A DNA stretch of 48,848 bases from NCBI GenBank assembly GCA_034661015.1, contig JAYEKN010000094.1, positions 1,631 to 50,478 on the forward strand. Reading direction: 5' to 3'. This DNA is from Candidatus Cloacimonadota bacterium. Its GTDB lineage: Bacteria > Cloacimonadota > Cloacimonadia > JGIOTU-2. Under the pieces are notes generated by a model. It made no database searches. It was not told the DNA's origin and saw only the letters and a list, made by a program, of their open reading frames with translations. Position 1 is the first letter of the stretch. Every line of letters begins with the position of its first letter. Below, piece after piece: positions 4,785 to 44,875 of this stretch. Both the position numbers and the translations under genes were made by a program.

Positions 4785-5364
4785 AACCGTAATAGGATTA
4801 ACCGGTGGAATTGGATGTGGTAAATCAACTGCAACCAATTTTTTTTTAGAAAAATCAATTCCAATTATTGATGCGGATAAATTGGGGCATAAAATTTTGG
4901 AAGAAATTAAAATAAAGAATGAACTTGTTTTTTCCTTCGGAAAGATAATCTTAGCTGATGGGGAAATTAGTAGGAAAAAATTAGGAAAACTTGTTTTCAG
5001 TGATAAATCCAAATTAGAAAAATTGAATGAAATTGTTCATCCCGTTTTGATAGAAAGAATCCAACAACGAGTAAATTCTCTGCACAATCGTTTCGTGATA
5101 ATTGATGCTGCCCTATTGCTGGACTGGGAAACGGACAATCTTTGTGATTTTATCGTTATTATTAAAGCTGAATATGAAACTAGGGTAAAGCGATTAGAAA
5201 ATTATAAAAATCTTTCCAGAGAAGATGCAGAAGCAAGAATACGAGCTCAAAAATTTGATACAAGCAAATGCGATTTTTTGATTTCTAATAATTCCACTAA
5301 GCATGAATTTTATAGTAAATTGGAAATTGTCTGGAAGAAAATTATAGATTATTCGGGTGGTTAG
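4765..5364 (+). CDS. coaE: Dephospho-CoA kinase
   Basis: P-loop IGLTGGIGCGKST, size of about 200 aa, and a 20-nt overlap with the cdaA 3' end. Confidence 0.9.
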   Translation: MMKLANKTVIGLTGGIGCGKSTATNFFLEKSIPIIDADKLGHKILEEIKIKNELVFSFGKIILADGEISRKKLGKLVFSDKSKLEKLNEIVHPVLIERIQQRVNSLHNRFVIIDAALLLDWETDNLCDFIVIIKAEYETRVKRLENYKNLSREDAEARIRAQKFDTSKCDFLISNNSTKHEFYSKLEIVWKKIIDYSGG

Positions 5365-11655: not shown

Positions 11656-12354
11656 TTATATTCTCAGTTTTAAATAAAGTTGAACTCGTCTATTTTTAGC
11701 ACGATTTTCCGGATTATCATTCGGAACAAGGGGTCTGTATTCACCATAACCTGTTGCACTCAAACGAGTTGGTGCAATATTGCCGTATTTTTGTAGAAAT
11801 TCTACTACTGCCACAGCTCGTGCAGTTGATAATGCCCAATTAGATGAAAATTCGGGCGTATGTATCGGGGTGTCATCTGTAAATCCTCGCACATCAATAT
11901 TAATGTTACTTTTTGAACTTAAAATATCTGAAAGGGAAAGAAGAAGTTTTTCCGCTTGAGAAGTTAATAAGGCATTTTTTTTTGCAAATAGCAAACTATC
12001 ATTAATATCCATAAAAATGCCGCTAAGATCATATTTCATTACAACTGCACTTGTGGGAATTTTTCCACTTTCCAATGCTTTTTCCATCTGTTGAACGGTT
12101 AAAAGCAATTTATGCCTTTCTCGTAATTCTGCTGCTGGCCTCGGAAGATAAGAAGGTACGCTGGTTTCTGGTTTAGTAATCCCAAAAGCACCTTGTAGTG
12201 AACCCATTGCTTTGTGAAACATTGATGTCTGGATTGATGAAAAGGATACAATAAGCACAAAGAAGGTGAGTAGCAAAGTCATCATATCACCGTAGGTTGT
12301 CATCCAAGCCGGTGATCCTTCTTCACATTTAACTTCGTTTTCTTCTTCAGCCAT
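11656..12354 (-). CDS. motB: Flagellar stator protein MotB (OmpA-like peptidoglycan-binding C-terminus)
   Basis: PAWMTTYGDMMTLLLTFFVLIVSF contains the conserved channel Asp. C-terminal GFTDDTPI...SNWALSTARAVAV...GYGEYRPL...NRRVQL. Confidence 0.92.
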   Translation of the reverse strand: MAEEENEVKCEEGSPAWMTTYGDMMTLLLTFFVLIVSFSSIQTSMFHKAMGSLQGAFGITKPETSVPSYLPRPAAELRERHKLLLTVQQMEKALESGKIPTSAVVMKYDLSGIFMDINDSLLFAKKNALLTSQAEKLLLSLSDILSSKSNINIDVRGFTDDTPIHTPEFSSNWALSTARAVAVVEFLQKYGNIAPTRLSATGYGEYRPLVPNDNPENRAKNRRVQLYLKLRI

Positions 12355-12390: not shown

Positions 12391-14157
12391 TTATATTTTT
12401 CCTTTTTGTTTAATTGGTGAATTGAATTTTTTAATCAAACGAACTTCCTCTATTCCCACATTTAATAACTCCGCAATTTCATCGGTAGATTTGCCTTCTT
12501 TGAGAAGTTCTACGATTTTTTGTTTCAGTTCATCTTCCGCTTGACGTTTTTTTTCGTTCTGAGCCGGATTAGATTTGTCTTCAGAAGGTTTGGTTTCCTC
12601 TTCAATTTCATCTATGGTTTCATCCTTCTTTTCTTTTTCGTGAATTTCAGAAGCAGGTTGCTCCGATTTCTCTTCCGGTTCCTCTTTATTAGAATCATCA
12701 TCAACAGGTTCAGAATCTTTAGCTGAATTGTCTTCTTCCTTTTGGAATTCACCTTTCTTCTTTTTTTTACTTTTTTTTATTCGTTTTACTTTTTTATCTT
12801 TCTTAATTTTTTTTGTTTTCTTTAACTTCTTGGTTTTTTCCTTTTTATTTGATTTTTTCTTTTCCGTTGAAGGTTCATCATCAGTCATAGAAGAAATTTT
12901 CTTTTTCCTTTTTGAAAACAATTTAAACAAAATGAATCCAATAAGAGCCAGAATAAAAATGCCAACCGGAATAAGAATAAATAAATTTGTTCTATGTATC
13001 TGAATATTATTAAAGAAATTTTTCCAAAAAGCAAGTGTGAGTAAAGATGTTAGACCGGATTTTTGTCTATCCGAATTAACGTCTTTCAACAAACGAGCGT
13101 AGGTTGATTCGCATTTTTTTGAATCTCCAATCGTTTGATACAAAACAGCAAGTAGTTGCAAAGCTTCCTCAGAATATTCATTTTTACTGACCGTTTTTTC
13201 AAGAGATTCTATCGCTTTATCGTATTCTTTATTTTGGAAATACCTTTTGCCGTAATAAAAATCGTGACCATATCGCTCGTTAGTTACAATTCTTTTCTTT
13301 GTCTGTTTAGTTGATTTCTCTTTGGCATCTGAGATCGAATTTGAGTGAGCCGGAATTATCGTTATCTTTTCTCCAAAAATGATTTTCTCATCCGAGCCGA
13401 AAGGGGTTGAATGCGTTGTGGTTTTATTCTGTGAGTCAAAATTGATTAGAAGGAGGTTAGAATTATTCAAGAAAACAAAGTTTGTTTTGCTTTCATAGAT
13501 TTTTTTAGCAAATTTTTTCCTATATTTCCAAATATAATCCGGAGTATTTTCCTCTTCGATTATATTCAGGTCTTTTCTAACATTTTTTCCTCTCTCAGAA
13601 TAATTCAAATCATAGAAATGAAAAAAAGGATATGCATTTTTCAGTTTAGAATCAAACCTACCTCCGATTTGATTTGTAAACAGATCAACGGAATCTCGCT
13701 CTGCAGAAATATCGTAATAAATTATCAGAGGATTAGATGAAAGATATTCATTCAGATCAGGATAGAGATTTTGTTCGGGATTTGACTTACGCAATTTTTT
13801 TCCAAAATCCTCTTTATAGATTGCCGAAATACTGAAATTGAAATATATAAAAATATTCACATCATATTTAGTGTAATTTATACTAAATTTGTTCACAGAC
13901 GGTTCGTTTGCAAAAATGTTTTGCATTAGTAACTTTTCCATATCTGAAAAAGTTGCGTTTTTTAGGGTAATTACACATAATGAATTGCAGTAAGATATGT
14001 TGCACGAAAAATTTTTATCATTGAGAAAAGTAAGAACAAAATCATCCTGAACATGTTTTTTTTCCACAACAAGCGTCTCCGCATTGGTAACCCATAAAAC
14101 AGATATGAGCATAATTATAAAAATACTTTTTGAAATTTTTTCTTTAAACGTAAACAT
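12391..14157 (-). CDS. Hypothetical membrane protein. Signal peptide, extracytoplasmic domain of about 360 aa with a TPR-like stretch, TM helix, Lys-rich then acidic disordered cytoplasmic region, C-terminal HTH-like module
   Basis: Signal peptide KSIFIIMLISVLWVTNA-ET. TPR-like YYGKRYFQNKEYDKAIESLEKTV...ALQLLAVLYQTIGD (aa ~296-360). TM helix NLFILIPVGIFILALIGFILFKLF (aa 391-414), followed by SKRKKK. K-rich aa 420-470, D/E-rich aa 470-545. C-terminal KIVELLKEGKSTDEIAELLNVGIEEVRLIKKF resembles a sigma-70 region-4/LuxR-type HTH. I recognise no family for the N-terminal domain. Confidence 0.6.
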   Translation of the reverse strand: MFTFKEKISKSIFIIMLISVLWVTNAETLVVEKKHVQDDFVLTFLNDKNFSCNISYCNSLCVITLKNATFSDMEKLLMQNIFANEPSVNKFSINYTKYDVNIFIYFNFSISAIYKEDFGKKLRKSNPEQNLYPDLNEYLSSNPLIIYYDISAERDSVDLFTNQIGGRFDSKLKNAYPFFHFYDLNYSERGKNVRKDLNIIEEENTPDYIWKYRKKFAKKIYESKTNFVFLNNSNLLLINFDSQNKTTTHSTPFGSDEKIIFGEKITIIPAHSNSISDAKEKSTKQTKKRIVTNERYGHDFYYGKRYFQNKEYDKAIESLEKTVSKNEYSEEALQLLAVLYQTIGDSKKCESTYARLLKDVNSDRQKSGLTSLLTLAFWKNFFNNIQIHRTNLFILIPVGIFILALIGFILFKLFSKRKKKISSMTDDEPSTEKKKSNKKEKTKKLKKTKKIKKDKKVKRIKKSKKKKKGEFQKEEDNSAKDSEPVDDDSNKEEPEEKSEQPASEIHEKEKKDETIDEIEEETKPSEDKSNPAQNEKKRQAEDELKQKIVELLKEGKSTDEIAELLNVGIEEVRLIKKFNSPIKQKGKI

Positions 14158-14404
14158 CGATTGCCATTCCCTTTCCAGTAACTTTTGAATCCGTTTTTGG
14201 TTTAGATGAAGTTTTATCGGATTTTGTTGAATGTTTTCTAACCACAGGTTGCTCTTTAGATTTTTTTTTGTTTTTTAATTTAATTTTTTCTTTTTTGGGT
14301 TGCTTTCTATCGCTTTTATCACCGAAACTATTTTTTGAGAGCTCCCCAACGGTTCTATTTTGATCCGGTTTGCTAATGGATGTTAATTGTTCTTGATCTG
14401 ACAT
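14144..14404 (-). CDS. Hypothetical small lysine/serine-rich (probably disordered) protein
   Basis: 86-aa ORF on the operon strand that fills the gap between the neighbouring genes. It overlaps the next start by 14 nt. No recognisable motif; the composition is low-complexity. Confidence 0.35.
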   Translation of the reverse strand: MSDQEQLTSISKPDQNRTVGELSKNSFGDKSDRKQPKKEKIKLKNKKKSKEQPVVRKHSTKSDKTSSKPKTDSKVTGKGMAIDVYV

Positions 14405-14413
14405 AATTCCTTC

Positions 14414-14671
14414 TTACTTTTTTTTCTTAACCTTTTTGGTTTTTGGGGTGGAATTATCTTTTGGCTTAACATCGAAACCTTTTTTTTGATTAATGGAGAT
14501 TGAAATTATCGTGATGATCAACTGAGCGAACAGGATCAGCAAATATGTAGAAACAAAAATTATCAAACCATTGATCAATACATTGATTGAGACTGCATTA
14601 TTTAGCAGATTTATCATGGCTCCAACTACTGTAACAAGCAAACAGATTTTGATAATATTTGAGTTTTTCAT
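14414..14671 (-). CDS. Hypothetical small membrane protein (two TM helices, poly-Lys tail)
   Basis: 85-aa ORF directly downstream of flhG on the operon strand. Hydrophobic helices IIKICLLVTVVGAMINLL and LIIFVSTYLLILFAQLIITIISI; C-terminal KTKKVKKKK. Confidence 0.4.
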   Translation of the reverse strand: MKNSNIIKICLLVTVVGAMINLLNNAVSINVLINGLIIFVSTYLLILFAQLIITIISISINQKKGFDVKPKDNSTPKTKKVKKKK

Positions 14672-14703: not shown

Positions 14704-15609
14704 TTATTTTATCTTCCCTTTATTTGAGTGAAATTTTTTAAATTTGTTAAAAATCGCACTCGAAATTGATTTAATATTTTTTGCTACTGATGAATTTGGC
14801 TTATACTTCACAACCGGAATTTGCTTTTTTTCCGCTTGAATACAATCCTCACTTTTTTCTGTATATCCAAGCAGAATTATTTCTTTGGAGAGAAAATGTT
14901 TTATGACAAGATTCAATTTGTCGAAAATTTCCTCCCCTTCGTTTTTACCGGATACCTCATTCACCACAACATGGATGGGCATATCCTCATTTTCCAAAAT
15001 TGCTAATTTTATGGATGCATACGCATCTACAATTGAAGATTGCTCGGGAGTGATCACAATCAAAGTTTCGTCTGAAAAATTAATAAAATCGAGAACAAAC
15101 CGATCGATTCCAGCGGGACAATCAAAAATAATTATATCATAATTTTTTTCCAGTTTTCGGATAACATTCAGGATTCGATCTATCGCGACCTCTTCATTAT
15201 CCAAAATTTCTATAGAACCTGAAGTAGCAGGCAAGAAATCAATGCCGGATTCATGCTTGACGATAATGTCTTCCACATTCAGATCATTTTCAAATACATG
15301 ATGAAGATTTTTCCCTAATTTTAGACCAAGCATAATATCAAGGTTTCCCAGATTTATATCTGCGTCAACAAGAAGAATTTTGTAGGCAAATCGTCCGATG
15401 CTTTGCATAGAAATGGCGATATTCATAGCCATCGTTGATTTTCCTACACCTCCCTTACCGCTTGCAATTGCAATTTTGTATGCTGAATTCGAGTCGAAAA
15501 GTTTTGACTCTCTTTTTTTTATGATCTGAGCAGATTTTCTTAGATTTTCTGCTTGATCAAGCGGATAAGAAATTCTGTTATCAGTTTGCGAAAAACTTTT
15601 TTCATTCAT
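14704..15609 (-). CDS. flhG: MinD/ParA-type ATPase FlhG (FleN)
   Basis: Deviant Walker A IASGKGGVGKST, located directly after flhF. I place the start at the ATG at 15609 (MNEKSF...), 8 nt after the flhF stop. The ORF track extends to 15657. Confidence 0.88.
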   Translation of the reverse strand: MNEKSFSQTDNRISYPLDQAENLRKSAQIIKKRESKLFDSNSAYKIAIASGKGGVGKSTMAMNIAISMQSIGRFAYKILLVDADINLGNLDIMLGLKLGKNLHHVFENDLNVEDIIVKHESGIDFLPATSGSIEILDNEEVAIDRILNVIRKLEKNYDIIIFDCPAGIDRFVLDFINFSDETLIVITPEQSSIVDAYASIKLAILENEDMPIHVVVNEVSGKNEGEEIFDKLNLVIKHFLSKEIILLGYTEKSEDCIQAEKKQIPVVKYKPNSSVAKNIKSISSAIFNKFKKFHSNKGKIK

Positions 15610-15616
15610 AATTTCA

Positions 15617-16774
15617 TTACACCAAATTACTTTCATTTTGAAAAAACAGATTAACATAATTGTCTTCGGAAATTATTCTAATATCATCAGGTACATTCTG
15701 TCCATTCGTGTAATAAGCCAAAGGAACTTCATTCATCATAAGAAAGTTTAGCATTACACCCGGCTGAGAAGTTTCATCCAATTTTGAAAAAATTACTCTA
15801 TCCACATTTCCAATTAATTTGTAGCGATTATAAGCATCATACATATCTCTTTCGTTCATGTTTGCACTCAGAATGAGATGAATTTCATCAATGGCAACGC
15901 CCTCGAATAAATTTAGAAGTTCCAAAATGGATTCACTGTTTCTGGGGCTTCTGCCGATTGTGTCTATCAGAATCACATCCTTATCCTGATTTCGCTGGAT
16001 GGCGGAAAAAAGATTTTTTTTCTTGTATATGATTTCAAAGGGGATATTGGAAATATTGGCAAATGTGCGTAACTGCTGGATAGCTGCGATCCGGAATGTA
16101 TCAATTGAAAAAAGAGCTGTGTTATAATTACCAAAAAAATTTTCATTGGTAGCTAATTTGGCAATCGTAGTTGTTTTTCCCACACCTGTTGGTCCAATGA
16201 CTGCAATAATCAATGGCTTTTTCTTCACTTCGATTTTTTTCATATTGAGATGATAATTAATCTCATCAGAAATGATTCCCTTAATTGAGACAGTGTCGGT
16301 GATTTTGCTCTTCAGGATTTTCTTTTCAGCCCCGGCAATCAAATTTGTTGCAATAGAACGATGTGTCCCATTTCTGGTAAGCCTATTGAAATATTCGGAA
16401 ACTTTTGGAGTAAACTCAATTTCTTTATCGGGAAATTTATCCTTGATGCCGATAAATTCCTGCTGCAACTTATGAAAATCCTCCTTGAGCAAATCGAAAT
16501 CATATTTTTTATTTCCTGAAACATCTGCGTCCATGTCTTGTGAATGTTTTTTAGTGCCATACAATTGACGGTCTCGACGTTTAGGTGATTTTTGAATTTG
16601 TTTGGAATTTAATTGTTCATCATAGGCTGCAATTGCTTTTATAATGTTTCCGTTTTTTACTTTTTCTGATCCGAGATGTTCGGTTTTTAAAATAATAGCA
16701 TCCTCACCAAATTCATTTTTGATTTGTTCAATAACTTCTTGCACACTTTTACCATAAAAAGTATTAACTCGCAT
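15617..16774 (-). CDS. flhF: SRP-type GTPase FlhF
   Basis: IAVIGPTGVGKTTTIAKLA, DTIGRS and FSKLDET G-motifs. Lies between flhA and flhG. Confidence 0.93.
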   Translation of the reverse strand: MRVNTFYGKSVQEVIEQIKNEFGEDAIILKTEHLGSEKVKNGNIIKAIAAYDEQLNSKQIQKSPKRRDRQLYGTKKHSQDMDADVSGNKKYDFDLLKEDFHKLQQEFIGIKDKFPDKEIEFTPKVSEYFNRLTRNGTHRSIATNLIAGAEKKILKSKITDTVSIKGIISDEINYHLNMKKIEVKKKPLIIAVIGPTGVGKTTTIAKLATNENFFGNYNTALFSIDTFRIAAIQQLRTFANISNIPFEIIYKKKNLFSAIQRNQDKDVILIDTIGRSPRNSESILELLNLFEGVAIDEIHLILSANMNERDMYDAYNRYKLIGNVDRVIFSKLDETSQPGVMLNFLMMNEVPLAYYTNGQNVPDDIRIISEDNYVNLFFQNESNLV

Positions 16775-19217: not shown

Positions 19218-20066
19218 ATGATCGTTGAAAATTTACATAATCCGGCATCCGCATTAGTGGAAACAACTGATTTTCAATCCAAACAAAAAATAATGAGCAC
19301 TTGCAAAAAGTTTGAAGCAATATTTCTGAATCAAATGCTTCAGATGATGCAACAGAATGGCAAAACCGAAGGTGTATTTGGAAACTCCCATTCACTTGAT
19401 ATGTTTAACAGTATGCTCTATTCGAGAATAGCCGAACTGCTTGCAAATTCATCCCAAACAGGAATATCTTCCGAGATATATGAAAGCATCACAGGTGAAA
19501 TGCCAGATGCGAAATTGTTATCTAAATCTGATTCACCCTCACAGATAATATTTAATAAAATTAAAGAAAATTTTCAAACAGTTACAGATAAAATAGGATT
19601 GAATCCCAAAGATATTCACGTAACAGAAGCAATAATGACAAATTTTGAAAAGGCGATTAATAAAATTCTTAAACCGTATTTGGATATTATCAATGCATCG
19701 GCGAAGAAAAATGATGTAAATCCTAATTTAGTTAAAGCTGTAATTCTGCGTGAATCCGCCGGGAATCCTAATGCAATTTCACATGTGGGTGCAAAGGGAT
19801 TAATGCAACTGATGGACGGAACTGCAAAAGATATGAATGTAAAGAATGTATTTAATCCCAAAGATAATATAAACGGAGGAACAAAATATTTAGCGAAAAT
19901 GCTCAAAATTTTTAAATCAGATATTGATTCAAGTCTGGCAGCTTATAATGCAGGACCGAGAAATGTTCAAAAATATAATGGGATCCCCCCATTTAGGGAG
20001 ACGATAAATTATGTAAACAGTGTGAAAACAATTTTTAATAAATTAGAGGGGAATGATACTAAATGA
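19218..20066 (+). CDS. flgJ: FlgJ-like rod-binding protein fused to an SLT-family lytic transglycosylase domain
   Basis: N-terminal rod-binding motif KKFEAIFLNQMLQMMQQ. C-terminal SLT (GH23) motifs ILRESAGNPNAISHVGAKGLMQLM...AYNAGP. Confidence 0.85.
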   Translation: MIVENLHNPASALVETTDFQSKQKIMSTCKKFEAIFLNQMLQMMQQNGKTEGVFGNSHSLDMFNSMLYSRIAELLANSSQTGISSEIYESITGEMPDAKLLSKSDSPSQIIFNKIKENFQTVTDKIGLNPKDIHVTEAIMTNFEKAINKILKPYLDIINASAKKNDVNPNLVKAVILRESAGNPNAISHVGAKGLMQLMDGTAKDMNVKNVFNPKDNINGGTKYLAKMLKIFKSDIDSSLAAYNAGPRNVQKYNGIPPFRETINYVNSVKTIFNKLEGNDTK

Positions 20067-21613: not shown

Positions 21614-21623
21614 AGGAGTGATA

Positions 21624-22358
21624 ATGGAAACAAATCAAAACGCAGACAAAGCAGCTTTAATCACCCAAAATTTTTGGGGTATTCTCACTAACATTTTGAA
21701 TACTGCAAATGAAGCCCAAGATAAATTTGCAGAAATCAAAGCTACCAAATCTGACAAAAATTATATTGAATTGGAAACGCTTTTTGAAATATTTGATTCT
21801 TTGACAAAACAGGTTAATAAACTTCCTCTGAGTATTGAGCAAGCTACCGAAACTATTAATACGATTGTGGATAGTATCCGCTTAAGCAGGGTTGGTATTA
21901 AAAATTCTGTGGATAGCATGCTGGAAAAAACCAGTGCGCAATTGGGTAAAGTAACAGATGCTACAGAAAGTGCTACGAATAATATTCTGGATGTTACAGA
22001 AAAACTGATGGATTCTCAAAATGGAATTATTGATAAATTAGAAGGAATTAAAGAAAATAAGGAAATTATTGATAATATAATTGAAATGATCAACGAAAAT
22101 CAGGATAACACTTTCCAGATTATGGATTTCCTCCAATTTCAAGACATAACGAATCAACAGATTCAAGGAATTTTGTCAGTGCTTAATGAAACTGAAAAAA
22201 AACTTGGTCACGTGCTCGTTATGCTTACAAACCTTGAGGGTAAGGACGGAGAAAAAATTCAAAAAGAAATTGAAGAAGAAACTATACACTTTGATAAGGA
22301 TGCCGAATTCAGAGATAAAAAGGATGCTCAAAAACTGATTGACGACCTTTTCGATTGA
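21624..22358 (+). CDS. cheZ: CheZ-family CheY-P phosphatase
   Basis: FQDITNQQIQGI matches the CheZ catalytic D-x3-Q motif (E. coli FQDLTGQ). The acidic C-terminal KLIDDLFD resembles the CheY-binding peptide. Long helical protein encoded immediately after cheY. I place the start at the ATG at 21624, 5 nt after AGGAG; the track starts at the GTG at 21618. Confidence 0.75.
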   Translation: METNQNADKAALITQNFWGILTNILNTANEAQDKFAEIKATKSDKNYIELETLFEIFDSLTKQVNKLPLSIEQATETINTIVDSIRLSRVGIKNSVDSMLEKTSAQLGKVTDATESATNNILDVTEKLMDSQNGIIDKLEGIKENKEIIDNIIEMINENQDNTFQIMDFLQFQDITNQQIQGILSVLNETEKKLGHVLVMLTNLEGKDGEKIQKEIEEETIHFDKDAEFRDKKDAQKLIDDLFD

Positions 22359-25417: not shown

Positions 25418-26182
25418 CTATAATTCATCAACTTCTCGCTCATCCGGCGGAAGAAAAGTCATTAACTTTCTCTTGATCAATCTCGGATTTTCACCCATCT
25501 GGATTGACAAAACACCGGCAATCACTATTTTTTTCTGATTGACTTCTCCATCGGTTCGTTTTATCAATTTTCCAGTCATAGGAATAAAAAACAGGTTAGC
25601 TGCAAAAGCACCATAGAATGTTGTAATCAAGGCAACAGCCATGCCGCTTCCAATCTTGGTTGGATCATCCAAACCTGATAACATTCCGATCAATCCGATC
25701 AGCGTGCCAATCATTCCAAAAGCCGGAGCCTGTTTTCCCATGGCATTCATTACATTTTGGGCTTCTTTATGCCTGTCTTTCATAGCTCTGATCTCTGTTT
25801 CCATCAAGTCAACGATTGTGTCCGGATCGTTACCATCTACTGCGAGAATCAATCCGTTCGCCAAAAAAGAATCTTCGATCGTTTGAATTTTATCATCCAA
25901 TGCCAATAATCCTTCTCTTTTGGAAACATCGGCAAGTTTGACCAAAGAATCAATTACCATTTTTGTATCTGATATCTGCTCAAAAAAGATAAATTTCATG
26001 GTTTTTAGTGTATTTATAACCGCTTCTAACGAGGTTTCTACCAAAACCGCTGCGAGAGAACCACCAATAGTAACAAGTATTGAGCTGATACTGATAAAGG
26101 CAGCAATATCGCCTGCCATCATAATTGAAGCGACGACCAGAATCACACCTCCACCAATGCCGAGCACACTTCCTTTATCCAT
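25418..26182 (-). CDS. motA: Flagellar stator protein MotA/PomA
   Basis: 254 aa with four TM helices. QAPAFGMIGTLIGLIGML and ALITTFYGAFAANLFFIPM contain the conserved prolines of the MotA_ExbB channel. Confidence 0.9.
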   Translation of the reverse strand: MDKGSVLGIGGGVILVVASIMMAGDIAAFISISSILVTIGGSLAAVLVETSLEAVINTLKTMKFIFFEQISDTKMVIDSLVKLADVSKREGLLALDDKIQTIEDSFLANGLILAVDGNDPDTIVDLMETEIRAMKDRHKEAQNVMNAMGKQAPAFGMIGTLIGLIGMLSGLDDPTKIGSGMAVALITTFYGAFAANLFFIPMTGKLIKRTDGEVNQKKIVIAGVLSIQMGENPRLIKRKLMTFLPPDEREVDEL

Positions 26183-32729: not shown

Positions 32730-33131
32730 ATGATATTAAATTCGATTTTTGGAAATTCAGTTAAAATTCTGCAAACTTGTTTGAACGGCTATAAAGCCCG
32801 AAACAGAGCAATTTCTTCAAATATTGCAAATGCAGAAGTTAAAAATTATCGAAAAATCAGCGTTGGTTTCGAAAACAACTTAAAAAAGGCAATAAATGAA
32901 AAATCCTCTGATATTACTCAAACCAATCCAGCTCATCTATCAAAGAATTCTGAAATAAACGAGGAAATGATTTCAGTTGAAAAAAGCAAATTTTCAAATG
33001 TGGGAGAGCATAAAATTTCACTTGATGAAGAAATGGTCAACTTAGTAAATAATCAAATCAACTACCAGACATCCGCCAAAGTTCTCAATAAGATGTTTGG
33101 TATTCTCCGAACCGCTATTAAAGGTAGATAA
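32730..33131 (+). CDS. flgB: Flagellar proximal rod protein FlgB
   Basis: RNRAISSNIANAEVKNYRK and C-terminal EEMVNLVNNQINYQTSAKVLNKM. Confidence 0.92.
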   Translation: MILNSIFGNSVKILQTCLNGYKARNRAISSNIANAEVKNYRKISVGFENNLKKAINEKSSDITQTNPAHLSKNSEINEEMISVEKSKFSNVGEHKISLDEEMVNLVNNQINYQTSAKVLNKMFGILRTAIKGR

Positions 33132-33916: not shown

Positions 33917-35986
33917 ATGGGTGATAATAAATTAAAACTGATTTTTGATAATGCCTCAACCGGTCAAAAAATCGTGATTGCTTCTGTTCTTATTAGCATT
34001 ATTCTCTTTACGACTTTGATTCTGAAATGGACAAATAAACCTGCAATGAGCCTTCTTTACTCCAATCTCAGTTCAAATGATGCCGGAGCTATTGTGGAAA
34101 AATTGGACAAGCAGAACATTAATTATGAATTGAAAGATGGCAATACTATCTTTGTTTCCCAAGATGATATATACAAATTGCGAATATCTCTGGCAAAAGA
34201 TGGACTTCCCACAAAAAAGGGATTCGGTTATGAAATTCTCAATTCAAAGGGATTTGGCACAACTGAATTTTTGCAAAAAATTAATTTTCGAAGAGCTCTC
34301 GAAGCAGAAATTGCTCAAACCATTACTGATTTGGAACCCATACAAGATGTGCGAATACATATTGTAATGCCCGATCAAGCCCTTTTTAAGGAAGATGAAA
34401 AACCTGTAACCGCAGGAGTAACTTTGAAACTTGCTGGTTCTGAGCATTTAACAAAGGAACAAATCCAAAGCATCATCTATCTTGTATCATCAAGCGTGGA
34501 GGGTTTGCAACCACAAAATATAACAGTAGTGGATACAAAAGGTGATATCCTCTCAAGTGAGCAGTATGACGATTTCAAAGGCACTTCAAGCAGTCTAACT
34601 CAGAGGATGGAAGTAGAAAAATATCTAACGGATAAAGTTAGTTCAATGCTCAATAATGTTCTCGGACCCGACAATTCTGTTGTCCGAATTTCGGTTGAAT
34701 TAGATATGGAGAGTATTGACCAAACAGATGAGACGTATGATCCAAATTCTCAAGTTGCCAGAAGTGAATCCATTAGTGAAAGCAGTTCTCAGGACGGTGA
34801 AAAGGATGTGGGAGGAGAAACCAGGGAATCTGAAATCACTACCAATTATGAAATCAGCAAAAGTATAAATCACACGGTTAAAAAATCCGGAAAAATTAAA
34901 AACATCTCGGTTTCTGTTTTAATTGATGGAACATACGTTCAAGAGGAAAATGAAGATGGAAAAATGATTACCAAATATGTTCCCCGTACTAATCAGGAGA
35001 TCAATGATATTACCTTAACCGTGCAAAACGCCATTGGGTCTGATGCTACGCGTGGAGATAGAATAACTGTTAGCAATATGCAGTTTAAAACCAAAGATGA
35101 ATTACCGATGTTGGCAGGAATGAAGAGCGGTGGATTCCAATTACCTGCAGATCTCTTTACAAAAGTGCTTACATTACTTCTTTTGGTATTAGGTGTGTTT
35201 CTGATTAAATCCATTTTAAAAAATTATGATCTTACCGAGTTAACTGCACATATTCGGCCATTAACAGTTCCGGCAGGTGCTCAACCTTCATCAAATATTT
35301 ATCAGCAACACGCAACGCCACAAACAATGACCTCCCCTACCCAAGCAACATCACAAACAAAACCACAAACTGAAATTAAAAAACAATTTACCCCTGAAGA
35401 TGAAAATGAAACAAAACCCGTAGAGAAAACAAAACAATCACCCGAACAAAAGATTGATCAAAATTCCCAAGAAACATCCACCTTAAAAGAGAAGCCAACG
35501 AAAAGTTCAGAAGAAATTAAAAAATTGGCGTTGGAAACTCAGGATTTGGAATTAGAAACCAAAAAAAGGGAAATGGACTTAAGAAAAAAAGCTCTTGAAA
35601 ATTTGGAGCTGGAGGAAAAAGAAATGGAATTCGATGAAAAGAAAAAACAGGAGAGATTAAAGATACTTAAGGAAGTAGAAAATCTTGAACATGAAATTCA
35701 TGGAATGGAAGATTCTATAGCAAGTGGAGAAAAATATGGTGGGTCTTCGGAAATCAATCAACCTACTCAAGAAGATATCGAAATGAAGAAACTTCTTGAA
35801 AGAAAACGAAAAGCACTTGAAAAACGCGAACAGATGAAAATTGAAATGGAAATGATGGCGAGTATTCAGAAAAAACCCGACATAAATCAGAAGAAAAGAA
35901 ATTTGGAAAAAAAACGAGTTAGTGAATATATTCAAAACAATCCTGAAGCAGCCAATGCAATTTTAAGAAGTTGGCTCAGTAAGTAA
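33917..35986 (+). CDS. fliF: Flagellar MS-ring protein FliF with an extended cytoplasmic C-terminal region
   Basis: N-terminal TM helix; LYSNLSSNDAGAIVEKLDKQNINYELKDGNTIFV; RISLAKDGLP; second TM helix near aa 415-435; terminal FliG-binding-like EYIQNNPEAANAILRSWLSK. About 230 aa of low-complexity/coiled-coil sequence lies between the second TM helix and the terminal motif. Confidence 0.93.
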   Translation: MGDNKLKLIFDNASTGQKIVIASVLISIILFTTLILKWTNKPAMSLLYSNLSSNDAGAIVEKLDKQNINYELKDGNTIFVSQDDIYKLRISLAKDGLPTKKGFGYEILNSKGFGTTEFLQKINFRRALEAEIAQTITDLEPIQDVRIHIVMPDQALFKEDEKPVTAGVTLKLAGSEHLTKEQIQSIIYLVSSSVEGLQPQNITVVDTKGDILSSEQYDDFKGTSSSLTQRMEVEKYLTDKVSSMLNNVLGPDNSVVRISVELDMESIDQTDETYDPNSQVARSESISESSSQDGEKDVGGETRESEITTNYEISKSINHTVKKSGKIKNISVSVLIDGTYVQEENEDGKMITKYVPRTNQEINDITLTVQNAIGSDATRGDRITVSNMQFKTKDELPMLAGMKSGGFQLPADLFTKVLTLLLLVLGVFLIKSILKNYDLTELTAHIRPLTVPAGAQPSSNIYQQHATPQTMTSPTQATSQTKPQTEIKKQFTPEDENETKPVEKTKQSPEQKIDQNSQETSTLKEKPTKSSEEIKKLALETQDLELETKKREMDLRKKALENLELEEKEMEFDEKKKQERLKILKEVENLEHEIHGMEDSIASGEKYGGSSEINQPTQEDIEMKKLLERKRKALEKREQMKIEMEMMASIQKKPDINQKKRNLEKKRVSEYIQNNPEAANAILRSWLSK

Positions 35987-40581: not shown

Positions 40582-41370
40582 GTGAAAATGGTCTATCTTC
40601 CAATAGTTACGAAAAGTGATCGTTCTGATAAGGTTAAAAAATTTAATTTTTTCTCCGGAGACAAGTTACTTGCTACATCAAATTCCACAAAAAATATTAG
40701 TTTTCACACGATTCTTCAAAATAAAATTTCCTTTGAAAAATTGAGAAAAAATTCTCACAAAATATTTTTCCCGGCAAATTTGCTTACACAGTTCAATTCT
40801 TACAACCATTCTTTTCAGAAGGGAAGAATTCAATCCCAAAATATATTTGATATATCAACTCGTTCTGAGATTGTTAATGGAAACGAAAAAAATTTATCTA
40901 AATTTGTTAGCAATAAAGATGCAAATAGGATGGGATATGCTAGTTTGTTTTCCGAAAAATTAGGCACTTTATCAAGGATTAATTCAAAAATTCACTCAAA
41001 ACAACAACCACCAACTGCAAACAATGTTCTGATCAAATCTTCTTTTGGTCCATATAATATCCGAAATGACTTTTTTTCGTTTAACAAAAGTTCAAACTCA
41101 TCAGGGATTATATCCCAATTTGTTGCTGATCGAATTGCAGAATCCATCAAAGATTATCCAATTAATTTTAGGAATATAAATTTGCAAATTAAATTTTCTA
41201 ATATGGGCAAAATGTATTGTTCTATCTTTAAATCAGGTAAAAATACCAGTGTCAGATTCCGAACCGATTCAAGAAAGCTGTCTCAAATTCTTAATCTATC
41301 CTTTTCATCCATCAGAAGAAATTTGCAAAGGAAAGGATTGCATCTTAGGCTGCTAACTCCGATTTTGTAA
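40582..41370 (+). CDS. fliK: Short FliK-like hook-length control protein (tentative)
   Basis: Lies after fliJ and the ylxF-like gene. The C-terminal part INLQIKFSNMGKMYCSIFKSGKNTSVRFRTDSRKLSQILNLSFSSIRRNLQRKGLHL resembles the Flg_hook domain pattern (L-x-L-x-P-x-LG-x-V-x-V...). The N-terminal part is S/N-rich. The start is uncertain (GTG at 40582 or ATG at 40588). Confidence 0.5.
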   Translation: MKMVYLPIVTKSDRSDKVKKFNFFSGDKLLATSNSTKNISFHTILQNKISFEKLRKNSHKIFFPANLLTQFNSYNHSFQKGRIQSQNIFDISTRSEIVNGNEKNLSKFVSNKDANRMGYASLFSEKLGTLSRINSKIHSKQQPPTANNVLIKSSFGPYNIRNDFFSFNKSSNSSGIISQFVADRIAESIKDYPINFRNINLQIKFSNMGKMYCSIFKSGKNTSVRFRTDSRKLSQILNLSFSSIRRNLQRKGLHLRLLTPIL

Positions 41371-44530: not shown

Positions 44531-44875
44531 ATGAACAATAAACGACAGTTAAAGAGAAGACATTTGATTTATTATCTACGCGTTTTTGATAGGGATAAAG
44601 ACAAACTTATTGGACATCTTGCTGATATTAATCAGAAGGGTTGCATGTTGATAAGTACAAAAAAAATTGAAATCAATAAAGAATTCAATATGAAAATGCT
44701 TCTTCCAAACCCAATAATGGGAAGTGAAGAATTAATATTTTCTACTCATAGTAAATGGAGTAAAAAAGATATTAATCCGGATTTTTATTTGACAGGTTTT
44801 GAATTTGACGATTTTCCATCTCAGAAGGTTAAAATCATTGATAAACTGATTGATGATTTCGGCTTTAATGATTAA
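44531..44875 (+). CDS. PilZ-domain protein (c-di-GMP receptor type)
   Basis: RQLKRRH (RxxxR) and DINQKGCML (D/NxSxxG-like, with Ser replaced by Asn). 114 aa. GGAG RBS. Confidence 0.75.
   Translation: MNNKRQLKRRHLIYYLRVFDRDKDKLIGHLADINQKGCMLISTKKIEINKEFNMKMLLPNPIMGSEELIFSTHSKWSKKDINPDFYLTGFEFDDFPSQKVKIIDKLIDDFGFND

Follow-up and report, generated by a model that had tools for sequence, protein, structure and literature searches.

What occupies the junction between flhG and motB in a flagellar operon of Candidatus Cloacimonadota? The stretch of DNA analysed here, 48,848 nucleotides long and called the window throughout, comes from a Candidatus Cloacimonadota bacterium (assembly GCA_034661015.1, contig JAYEKN010000094.1, forward-strand positions 1,631 to 50,478). 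Between flhG (14704-15657) and motB (11656-12354) lie three open reading frames (ORFs) of 85, 86 and 588 amino acids (aa), which a first-pass annotation made from the sequence alone could assign to no flagellar family. The ORF list bears out this co-directional trio on the minus strand, but the largest product is not unrecognisable, as had been thought, since its C-terminus passes the threshold of the Pfam family DUF6115. Here we describe the 588-aa protein (12391-14157, minus strand), which by its sequence is a type-I bitopic inner-membrane protein of the flagellar family that combines a transmembrane (TM) helix with a helix-turn-helix (HTH) module (the 'TM+HTH' family; DUF6115/DUF2802, SwrB/FipA-like). 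We infer, with somewhat more belief than doubt, that it is a membrane-anchored early flagellar assembly factor, with a module that binds FlhF and a periplasmic part tied to the envelope.

The family assignment of the tail is made because it passes a Pfam threshold, carries the third-helix signature E-[VA]-x-L and stands in a matching gene context. The three-helix, HTH-like C-terminal module (aa 536-583, KQKIVELLKEGKSTDEIAELLNVGIEEVRLIKKF; 12409-12552, minus strand), recognised through DUF6115, AlphaFold and hhalign, belongs to a protein that scores 28.1 bits over its full length against DUF6115 (PF19610; cut-off 27 bits), while the tail alone (aa 497-588) reaches 34.8 bits and P0002, a homologue discussed below, 33.2 bits. 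AlphaFold models the three helices at aa 531-553, 558-565 and 569-578 with a predicted local distance difference test (pLDDT) score of 89-96, so that the check on the C-terminal fold does return an HTH. The nearest structural superpositions found by Foldseek are resolvase and GerE/LuxR HTH domains, with a root-mean-square deviation of 0.7-1.3 A over 34-37 residues; none is significant, as expected because the domain is so short. The tail had been read as an HTH of the sigma-70 region-4 or LuxR type, and of this the fold stands; the family does not, given sub-threshold Pfam scores and FliA queries that fail to match it.

The key residues of the module are G555, A562, E571 and L574, and in a 13-sequence module alignment the glycine and the alanine are invariant and the leucine is nearly so. 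The distance from glycine to leucine, 19 residues, is the same as in FipA, and the spacing of G555, E571 and L574 (16 and 3) is the FipA spacing, G-x15-E-x2-L. Profiles of the window-type and DUF2802-type tails align in hhalign with 95% probability (E 3.6e-8), a gammaproteobacterial protein (locus L079) that passes the DUF2802 threshold with 39.1 bits has the same G-x15-E-x2-L spacing, and DUF6115 and DUF2802 match the same stretch in many related proteins and in short database fragments.

The remainder of the protein, with all of its features on the minus strand, has a predicted orientation with the N-terminus in the periplasm and the C-terminus in the cytoplasm. The signal peptide inferred from the sequence (aa 1-26, MFTFKEKISKSIFIIMLISVLWVTNA; 14080-14157) has a basic n-region, is hydrophobic from aa 8 and ends in a TNA/ET cleavage-type site, the cleavage region reading ...WVTNA/ET. 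An orphan periplasmic domain follows (aa 27 to ~290, ~265 aa; 13288-14079), with a conserved pair of cysteines (FSCN...SLC), and then a pair of tetratricopeptide repeats (TPRs; aa ~291-366, 13060-13287) directly N-terminal to the TM helix. Several Pfam TPR models match aa 300-365, each slightly under its cut-off, the profile of the region has PDB matches to LapB and to consensus TPR structures (E 5e-8 to 1e-6), and AlphaFold models its helices at pLDDT 58-78. The TM helix (aa 392-414; 12916-12984) was placed by a hydropathy scan within the hydrophobic segment aa 387-414; it is kept in P0002, and the KLFSKRKKK that comes after it is consistent with the positive-inside rule. A cytoplasmic linker of ~120 aa (12553-12915), disordered by its composition and by a pLDDT of about 50-61 over aa 497-536, is Lys-rich at first (28 Lys in the 56 residues of aa 415-470, net +23) and then acidic (aa 471-535, net charge -17). 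Hydropathy, composition and the TPR matches thus confirm the succession of signal peptide, TPR-like stretch, TM helix and Lys-rich then acidic region that the first-pass annotation had drawn. The opposite strand of the Lys-rich coding region reads as two Phe-rich ORFs of 68 and 91 aa (plus strand, 12520-13003), which are mirror images of that coding and not genes.

Proteins with this module are found well beyond Cloacimonadota. A hidden Markov model (HMM) of the window tail was searched against all ORFs of 80 flagellar loci fetched through FlhA, and proteins combining an N-terminal TM helix with the module lie downstream of flhA-flhF-flhG(-fliA) in Zetaproteobacteria, Desulfobacterota-type metagenome-assembled genomes (MAGs), Bacillus, Lachnospiraceae, a Chloroflexi-like MAG and others. 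Across many phyla, then, the surveyed neighbourhoods hold a TM+HTH gene downstream of flhA-flhF-flhG, and P0002 lies upstream of motB. The suggestion that the protein is specific to this lineage holds for the periplasmic part only; the tail family is widespread and has been published as flagellar 'TM+HTH'. Three DUF6115 genes chosen by sequence alone, among several matches on long contigs (L085, L086 and L087, in each near position 5000), are flanked by sigD and rpsB and come after cheA-cheW-cheC-cheD. This is the swrB position, so that SwrB-type proteins and FipA have the module in common. The final ~40 positions of the NCBIfam model NF047515 (SpiroCoCo_C), which describes a coiled-coil family of spirochaetes, also match the module in L005 (4e-10), L003, L030 and L060, and spirochaetes may carry a long coiled-coil version of the TM+HTH protein.

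The nearest relatives of the window's FlhA belong to FCB-type MAGs (an unclassified marine MAG, Zixibacteria, Ignavibacteriota, Balneolales and Marinimicrobia), the best among GTDB species genomes being 43% identical; a metagenome scan with FlhG found no close relatives. In the FCB-type MAG with the closest FlhA (L003), a 483-aa protein that scores 28.4 bits against DUF6115 is built of a signal peptide, a beta-rich periplasmic region, a TPR, a TM helix, a Pro/Glu-rich linker and the module, and its significant similarity to the window protein is confined to the module. Ignavibacteriota and Marinimicrobia loci encode shorter bitopic proteins with degenerate modules. The gene order in the FCB relatives runs flhG, a small ORF with two TM helices (2-TM), fliA, a small charged ORF, HDOD and sensor genes, and the TM+HTH gene, and the order in the window is the same minus fliA. 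In L003 (11654-13968) and L006 (15148-17434), fliA is separated from the TM+HTH gene by the inserted genes of an HDOD-domain protein and a GAF/PAS histidine kinase, neither of which the window operon has.

This arrangement has a published counterpart in the neighbourhood described by Zamba-Campero et al., in which FlgV stands at the junction of FlhF-FlhG and a sub-module of sigma28, FapA, YjfB and 'TM+HTH' (bioRxiv 10.1101/2024.01.09.574855); Cloacimonadota are not named in its text (bioRxiv 10.1101/2024.01.09.574855). The set and order of FlhF, FlhG, a small 2-TM protein, a small uncharacterised protein and a TM protein with an HTH are alike in the two. The window differs in having neither sigma28 nor FapA, in a 2-TM ORF that is without the Type-1 Arg-Ser, in a small protein that Pfam YjfB_motility does not match, and in the large periplasmic extension of its TM+HTH protein.

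The best guide to what such a module might do is FipA (FlrD in V. cholerae), a small protein anchored in the membrane at its N-terminus, with DUF2802 as its cytoplasmic domain, which binds FlhF and is needed for its polar placement in Vibrio, Pseudomonas and Shewanella (PMC11620751). In VpFipA, G110, E126 and L129 are fully conserved, G110 and L129 being required for FlhF binding, and the family is reported to be restricted to gammaproteobacteria, with homologues stated to be absent from Bacillus (PMC11620751). The 588-aa protein shares with FipA a membrane anchor, a conserved module at the cytoplasmic C-terminus and the identical G...E..L spacing. FipA occurs only where a genome encodes FlhF and FlhG, close to the flhA-flhF-flhG cluster, and the 588-aa gene is likewise located in that cluster of an organism bearing both, here with flhF and flhG two to three genes upstream in the same operon. 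Unlike FipA, which has ~160 aa, a periplasmic stub of five residues and a coiled coil, it has a signal peptide, ~360 periplasmic residues with TPRs and a charged disordered linker of ~120 aa, and whereas the FipA gene follows che genes, the window gene is upstream of motB.

We link the tail to FlhF because it is related to DUF2802 and the FipA binding residues are conserved. By this analogy, the working part of the protein would be its C-terminal three-helix module, tethered to the membrane by the Lys-rich then acidic disordered linker. The module would most likely bind FlhF, which is encoded two genes upstream, through the surface that holds G555 and L574, and FlhF would thereby be concentrated or activated at the membrane site where assembly of the MS-ring and export gate begins. 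The orphan domain and the TPR pair are a lineage-specific addition, probably linking this activity to something in the envelope, for instance the pole, peptidoglycan or a motor part that lies in the periplasm. The 85-aa ORF, a FlgV-like hairpin, and the 86-aa ORF, which ends in I-D-V-x-V, would be the remaining small members of the conserved accessory neighbourhood, and may have become adjacent once sigma28 and FapA were lost or moved from the operon in this lineage.

Several points count against a FlhF-binding role. Against DUF2802 (PF10975; cut-off 33.5 bits) the full protein scores 12.2 bits and the tail by itself 15.9 bits, which is far under the threshold and a further difference from FipA, and the closer model is the SwrB-type DUF6115, SwrB being described as working through FliP and the basal body, not FlhF. 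Many HTH domains, and even designed helical repeats, share the pattern G-x-[ST]-x-x-E-I-A-x-x-L, so that the sequence signal of the 45-residue module is modest and leans partly on context. That context is itself partly built in, as the module-family loci were gathered via FlhA and the three sequence-picked DUF6115 loci are the only independent sample. The periplasmic domain has no usable model or match from AlphaFold or Foldseek, and neither small ORF scores significantly over its whole sequence against its proposed family. A separate observation concerns the short motif: a designed 'CAP repeat' protein (PDB 8vd6) matches the module profile five times (E 3.6e-32), which marks G-x-[ST]-x-x-E-I-A-x-x-L-G-L as a generic HTH pattern and calls for caution with short-motif arguments.

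Of the alternatives, the one that survives best, though we regard it as doubtful, has the module acting in the manner of SwrB on the nascent basal body (FliF/FliG/FliP) and switching on the type III export gate after completion of the MS- and C-rings. The Bacillus fla/che operon ends with swrB, and its product is a single-pass membrane protein by which the flagellar export gate is activated (PMC4526659). In favour of such an action, the best Pfam match of the 588-aa protein, DUF6115, is the family whose members occupy the swrB position, SwrB crosses the membrane once and activates export via FliP and the C-ring, and the 588-aa gene shares its operon with fliM, fliN, fliO, fliP, fliR and flhB. 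The likeness to SwrB (YlxL of B. subtilis) also takes in the DUF6115 threshold passed, the single-pass topology with a cytoplasmic C-terminal module, and a gene located within the main flagellar operon; in some Bacillaceae, moreover, the gene is preceded by a small ORF ending ...IDxSG, as the window gene is by its 86-aa ORF. SwrB differs in its length of ~170 aa without a periplasmic domain, as against 588 aa with one, and in a gene that comes last, after sigD, whereas the window gene is followed by motB-fliL-fliM and no sigD/fliA is present in the window. It differs, too, in its peritrichous Gram-positive host and in its proposed target, FliP and the basal body. What tells against a SwrB-like action here is the presence of FlhF and FlhG together with a sigma54-type regulator pair, as in polar flagellates that use FipA, and the conservation of the FipA residues required for FlhF binding. 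The two readings need not be exclusive, as FipA-like action on FlhF and SwrB-like action on the basal body may be two views of one mechanism.

A FlhF-linked function also bears on the comparison with polar landmark proteins that had been offered for the 588-aa protein. Its layout resembles that of HubP/FimV, with a domain in the periplasm, a single TM helix, a cytoplasmic region that is long, charged and acidic, and a small C-terminal module that is conserved, and there is a functional link to FlhF/FlhG placement as well. It differs in having no LysM domain, FimV C-terminal domain or acidic repeat array, and no sequence similarity to HubP/FimV was detected. Pfam gives no LysM match at E<=1, in agreement with the first-pass annotation, and NCBIfam no FimV match at E<=1. 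A landmark-type organiser of FlhF/FlhG is closer to the evidence, in view of the DUF2802 relation and the FipA residues, than the other proposal of a transcription module; the protein does not belong to HubP/FimV.

The periplasmic domain stands nearly alone in the databases. When 1.84 billion representative proteins were searched with an HMMER profile, this domain gave the protein itself and P0002 only; the other matches cover the TPR region only, and those extending over the TM region as well are ordinary TPR proteins. Word-indexed protein searches with the full protein or the periplasmic domain gave one homologue or none, the Lys-rich linker having swamped the candidates, and the domain has no Pfam or PDB match. 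The AlphaFold model of aa 27-420 is poor (mean pLDDT 48.9), and Foldseek searches with it produced TPR matches only, none at E<=1e-3. Profile and structure searches have accordingly led the tail to DUF6115 and left the periplasmic domain without a significant match. P0002, from a Cloacimonetes MAG (L001), is 31% identical to the 588-aa protein over the N-terminal 400 residues, and its gene is located directly upstream of motB-fliL-fliM-fliN-fliO-fliP-fliQ-fliR. Its neighbours are 42-75% identical to their window counterparts (FliP 75%, FliM 69%, FliL 42%), which indicates that the 588-aa gene evolves much faster than the flagellar core. The window-type periplasmic domain is limited to two known sequences; periplasmic extensions as such recur in FCB-type lineages. 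An AMIN-like beta-sandwich in common with the L003, L006 and L055 proteins was considered and is unsupported, with no Pfam AMIN match and an hhalign probability of 0.2% between the N-terminal domains. The hhalign comparison of the TPR and TM region with the L003 protein is not significant (E 0.054).

The two short ORFs upstream of the 588-aa gene have no Pfam match. The 85-aa protein (14414-14671, minus strand) has two hydrophobic TM helices that form a hairpin and a short basic tail, and its start codon is 32 nt after the flhG stop. Small 2-TM ORFs are found directly after flhG or before fliA in L003, L006, L009, L016, L022, L055, L062 and Firmicutes loci, and an 11-member HMM of these ranks the 85-aa ORF 16th among 7577 ORFs (12.2 bits, E 0.069). 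Published as a 2-TM protein, FlgV has an Arg inside the membrane together with a polar tail and a short peptide at the C-terminus, the Type-1 signature being an intramembrane Arg (RS) in TM2 and an acidic residue where that helix begins (bioRxiv 10.1101/2024.01.09.574855). The 85-aa ORF does not have the Type-1 Arg-Ser, reading L-I-N-G in TM2, a position at which seven of the 11 aligned relatives have R-[SMG] (the seven FCB/Zetaproteobacteria loci except L009, plus L041). By position, size and 2-TM topology only, it may be termed FlgV-like.

The 86-aa protein (14144-14404, minus strand) is small, basic and disordered, with the C-terminus ...KGMAIDVYV, and its ORF, which has an AAGGA motif 5 nt 5' of its ATG, shares 14 nt with the start of the 588-aa gene. 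The same kind of ending, [IV]-D-[IVY]-x-[VIG], is found in small charged ORFs directly upstream of TM+HTH genes (L005, 6994-7335; L018, 16091-16267; L030, 19694-20008; L085, 4295-4600) and in ORFs directly after fliA (L003, 11364-11657; L055, 15087-15377; L004, 15584-16012), as against ~7 of roughly 7000 other ORFs. Over the whole sequence, HMM similarity of the 86-aa ORF to the ORFs that share the motif is not significant (E 1.5), and Pfam YjfB_motility (PF14070) has no match at E<=10 in it or in six counterparts. These I-D-V-type ORFs make up an unannotated family of charged, disordered proteins, not one of them with a Pfam match, and the loci that encode them include those of Bacillaceae, Desulfobacterota-type MAGs, Zixibacteria and Marinimicrobia.

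Whether the 85-aa and 86-aa ORFs are two genes is a fair question, because they are in the same frame and are set apart at the junction (14405-14416) by a TAA and three codons (E-G-I) alone. One or both could be something other than an independent gene, such as filler left after the loss of fliA or the halves of a FlgV-type gene cut by the in-frame TAA, and the hypothetical read-through product of 175 aa, in which two TM helices and a polar tail would precede a short C-terminal peptide of hydrophobic/basic character, resembles the published description of FlgV. The missing Pfam matches and significant HMM scores, and the ease with which A-rich DNA yields Lys-rich ORFs, would fit the same explanation. 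We nevertheless judge it improbable. Two separate genes appear more likely than a read-through fusion, because the 86-aa type is independent elsewhere, found as its own ORF, and with that motif at the C-terminus, in seven or more further loci, several of them not beside a 2-TM gene, and because it has its own AAGGA-ATG start. The ORFs are as closely spaced as in an operon, no others compete with them, and frame-specific codon statistics are positive for both, the annotated frame being favoured for all three ORFs of the trio with the two short ones at the low edge of real genes.

No fliA was expected from the first-pass annotation and none was found in the window. Among the window ORFs scanned with Pfam (most of those of at least 110 aa) there is no sigma factor, and a tblastn search with seven FliA proteins from related loci detected neither fliA nor a remnant of it (best E=0.009), with no match within 12.3-14.7 kb and none to the tail of the 588-aa protein. 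In relatives, fliA coexists with the TM+HTH gene, which shows that the TM+HTH protein is no replacement for FliA. A sigma-mimic or DNA-binding role for the 588-aa protein is unlikely: the membrane-tethered transcription or sigma-mimic module that had been proposed finds no support in the sub-threshold sigma and LuxR models or in the acidic third helix, which lies at the recognition-helix position and starts E-E-V. That the protein is a tethered transcription factor, sigma mimic or anti-sigma-like regulator whose HTH binds DNA, RNA polymerase or sigma54/sigma28 and offsets the missing fliA would agree with the confirmed HTH fold and its nearest structures among DNA-binding HTH domains, with the absence of fliA from the window, with the original report that FlrD, FipA's homologue in V. 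cholerae, activates flagellar gene expression and with the reduced sigmaD-dependent expression of swrB mutants, but we consider it highly improbable, as Sigma70_r4 (12.6 bits; cut-off 24.1), Sigma70_r4_2 (13.1 bits; cut-off 25.7) and other DNA-binding HTH models are under their thresholds and GerE is not among the matches, sigma regions 2 and 3 have no Pfam match in the protein, the module is slightly acidic rather than basic (aa 553-580, net charge -1), the effects that FlrD and SwrB have on transcription are put down to indirect routes (through FlhF, or through hook completion and FlgM export), and relatives have fliA beside the TM+HTH gene.

The surroundings of the trio are flagellar on both sides. 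By Pfam and NCBIfam, the neighbours are FlhA, FlhF and FlhG upstream, and MotB, FliL, FliM, FliN, FliO, FliP, FliR and FlhB downstream, and the trio lies inside an unbroken run of genes, flhA-flhF-flhG ... motB-fliL-fliM-fliN-fliO-fliP-(fliQ)-fliR-flhB. There is a promoter-like site 5' of flhA and no terminator-like site on the minus strand between flhA and fliL. The flhF gene extends over window positions 15617-16774; the start of flhG is that of the 14704-15657 ORF, position 15609, given as the start at first, being an internal ATG. Further flagellar operons, flgF-G-A-H-I-flgD-motA and fliF-G-H-I-J, and a sigma54-dependent response regulator with its kinase are also encoded in the window. 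As the last gene of the former operon, motA (25418-26182) is unlinked from motB (11656-12354), and the 588-aa gene sits upstream of motB, where motA is normally found. The trio-bearing operon resembles a circular permutation of the Marinimicrobia locus L055 (motA-motB-fliL...flhB-flhA-flhF-flhG...). Elsewhere in the window, four ORFs without a Pfam match at 1e-5 or 1e-4 lie within or adjoining flagellar operons (21618-22358, 246 aa; 32730-33131, 133 aa; 40582-41370, 262 aa; 44531-44875, 114 aa), FliF (33917-35986) is unusually long at 689 aa, and a FlgJ-like protein (19218-20066) has both a rod-binding and an SLT lytic transglycosylase domain.

FipA had been known as a gammaproteobacterial invention, and SwrB as a Bacillus-specific protein with an ill-defined mechanism. 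The window and the comparison loci suggest that the two share one small cytoplasmic module, which recurs near flhF/flhG in many phyla and can be mounted on a TM anchor alone or on a large periplasmic domain. The 588-aa protein, for which the view of a landmark-like, FlhF-linked factor is partly supported, is a new architecture within a known family, not a new family. A bolder proposal, which we put forward tentatively and consider rather unlikely as it stands, is that SwrB, FipA/FlrD and the TM+HTH proteins form one ancient cross-phylum family that acts at the first step of flagellum assembly, often with a small disordered partner ending in I-D-x-x-V, and that the Cloacimonadota-type fusion to a periplasmic sensor or anchor unites jobs that gammaproteobacteria divide between the landmark protein HubP and FipA, relaying envelope or positional information to FlhF. 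The main value of the finding lies in the connection among SwrB, FipA and the 'TM+HTH' proteins, together with a pointer to a previously unnoticed small partner, the I-D-V-type ORF. If true, this connection would imply a common mechanism for an early checkpoint in flagellar assembly, and the 588-aa protein would be an example from nature of such a module receiving positional input straight from the envelope.

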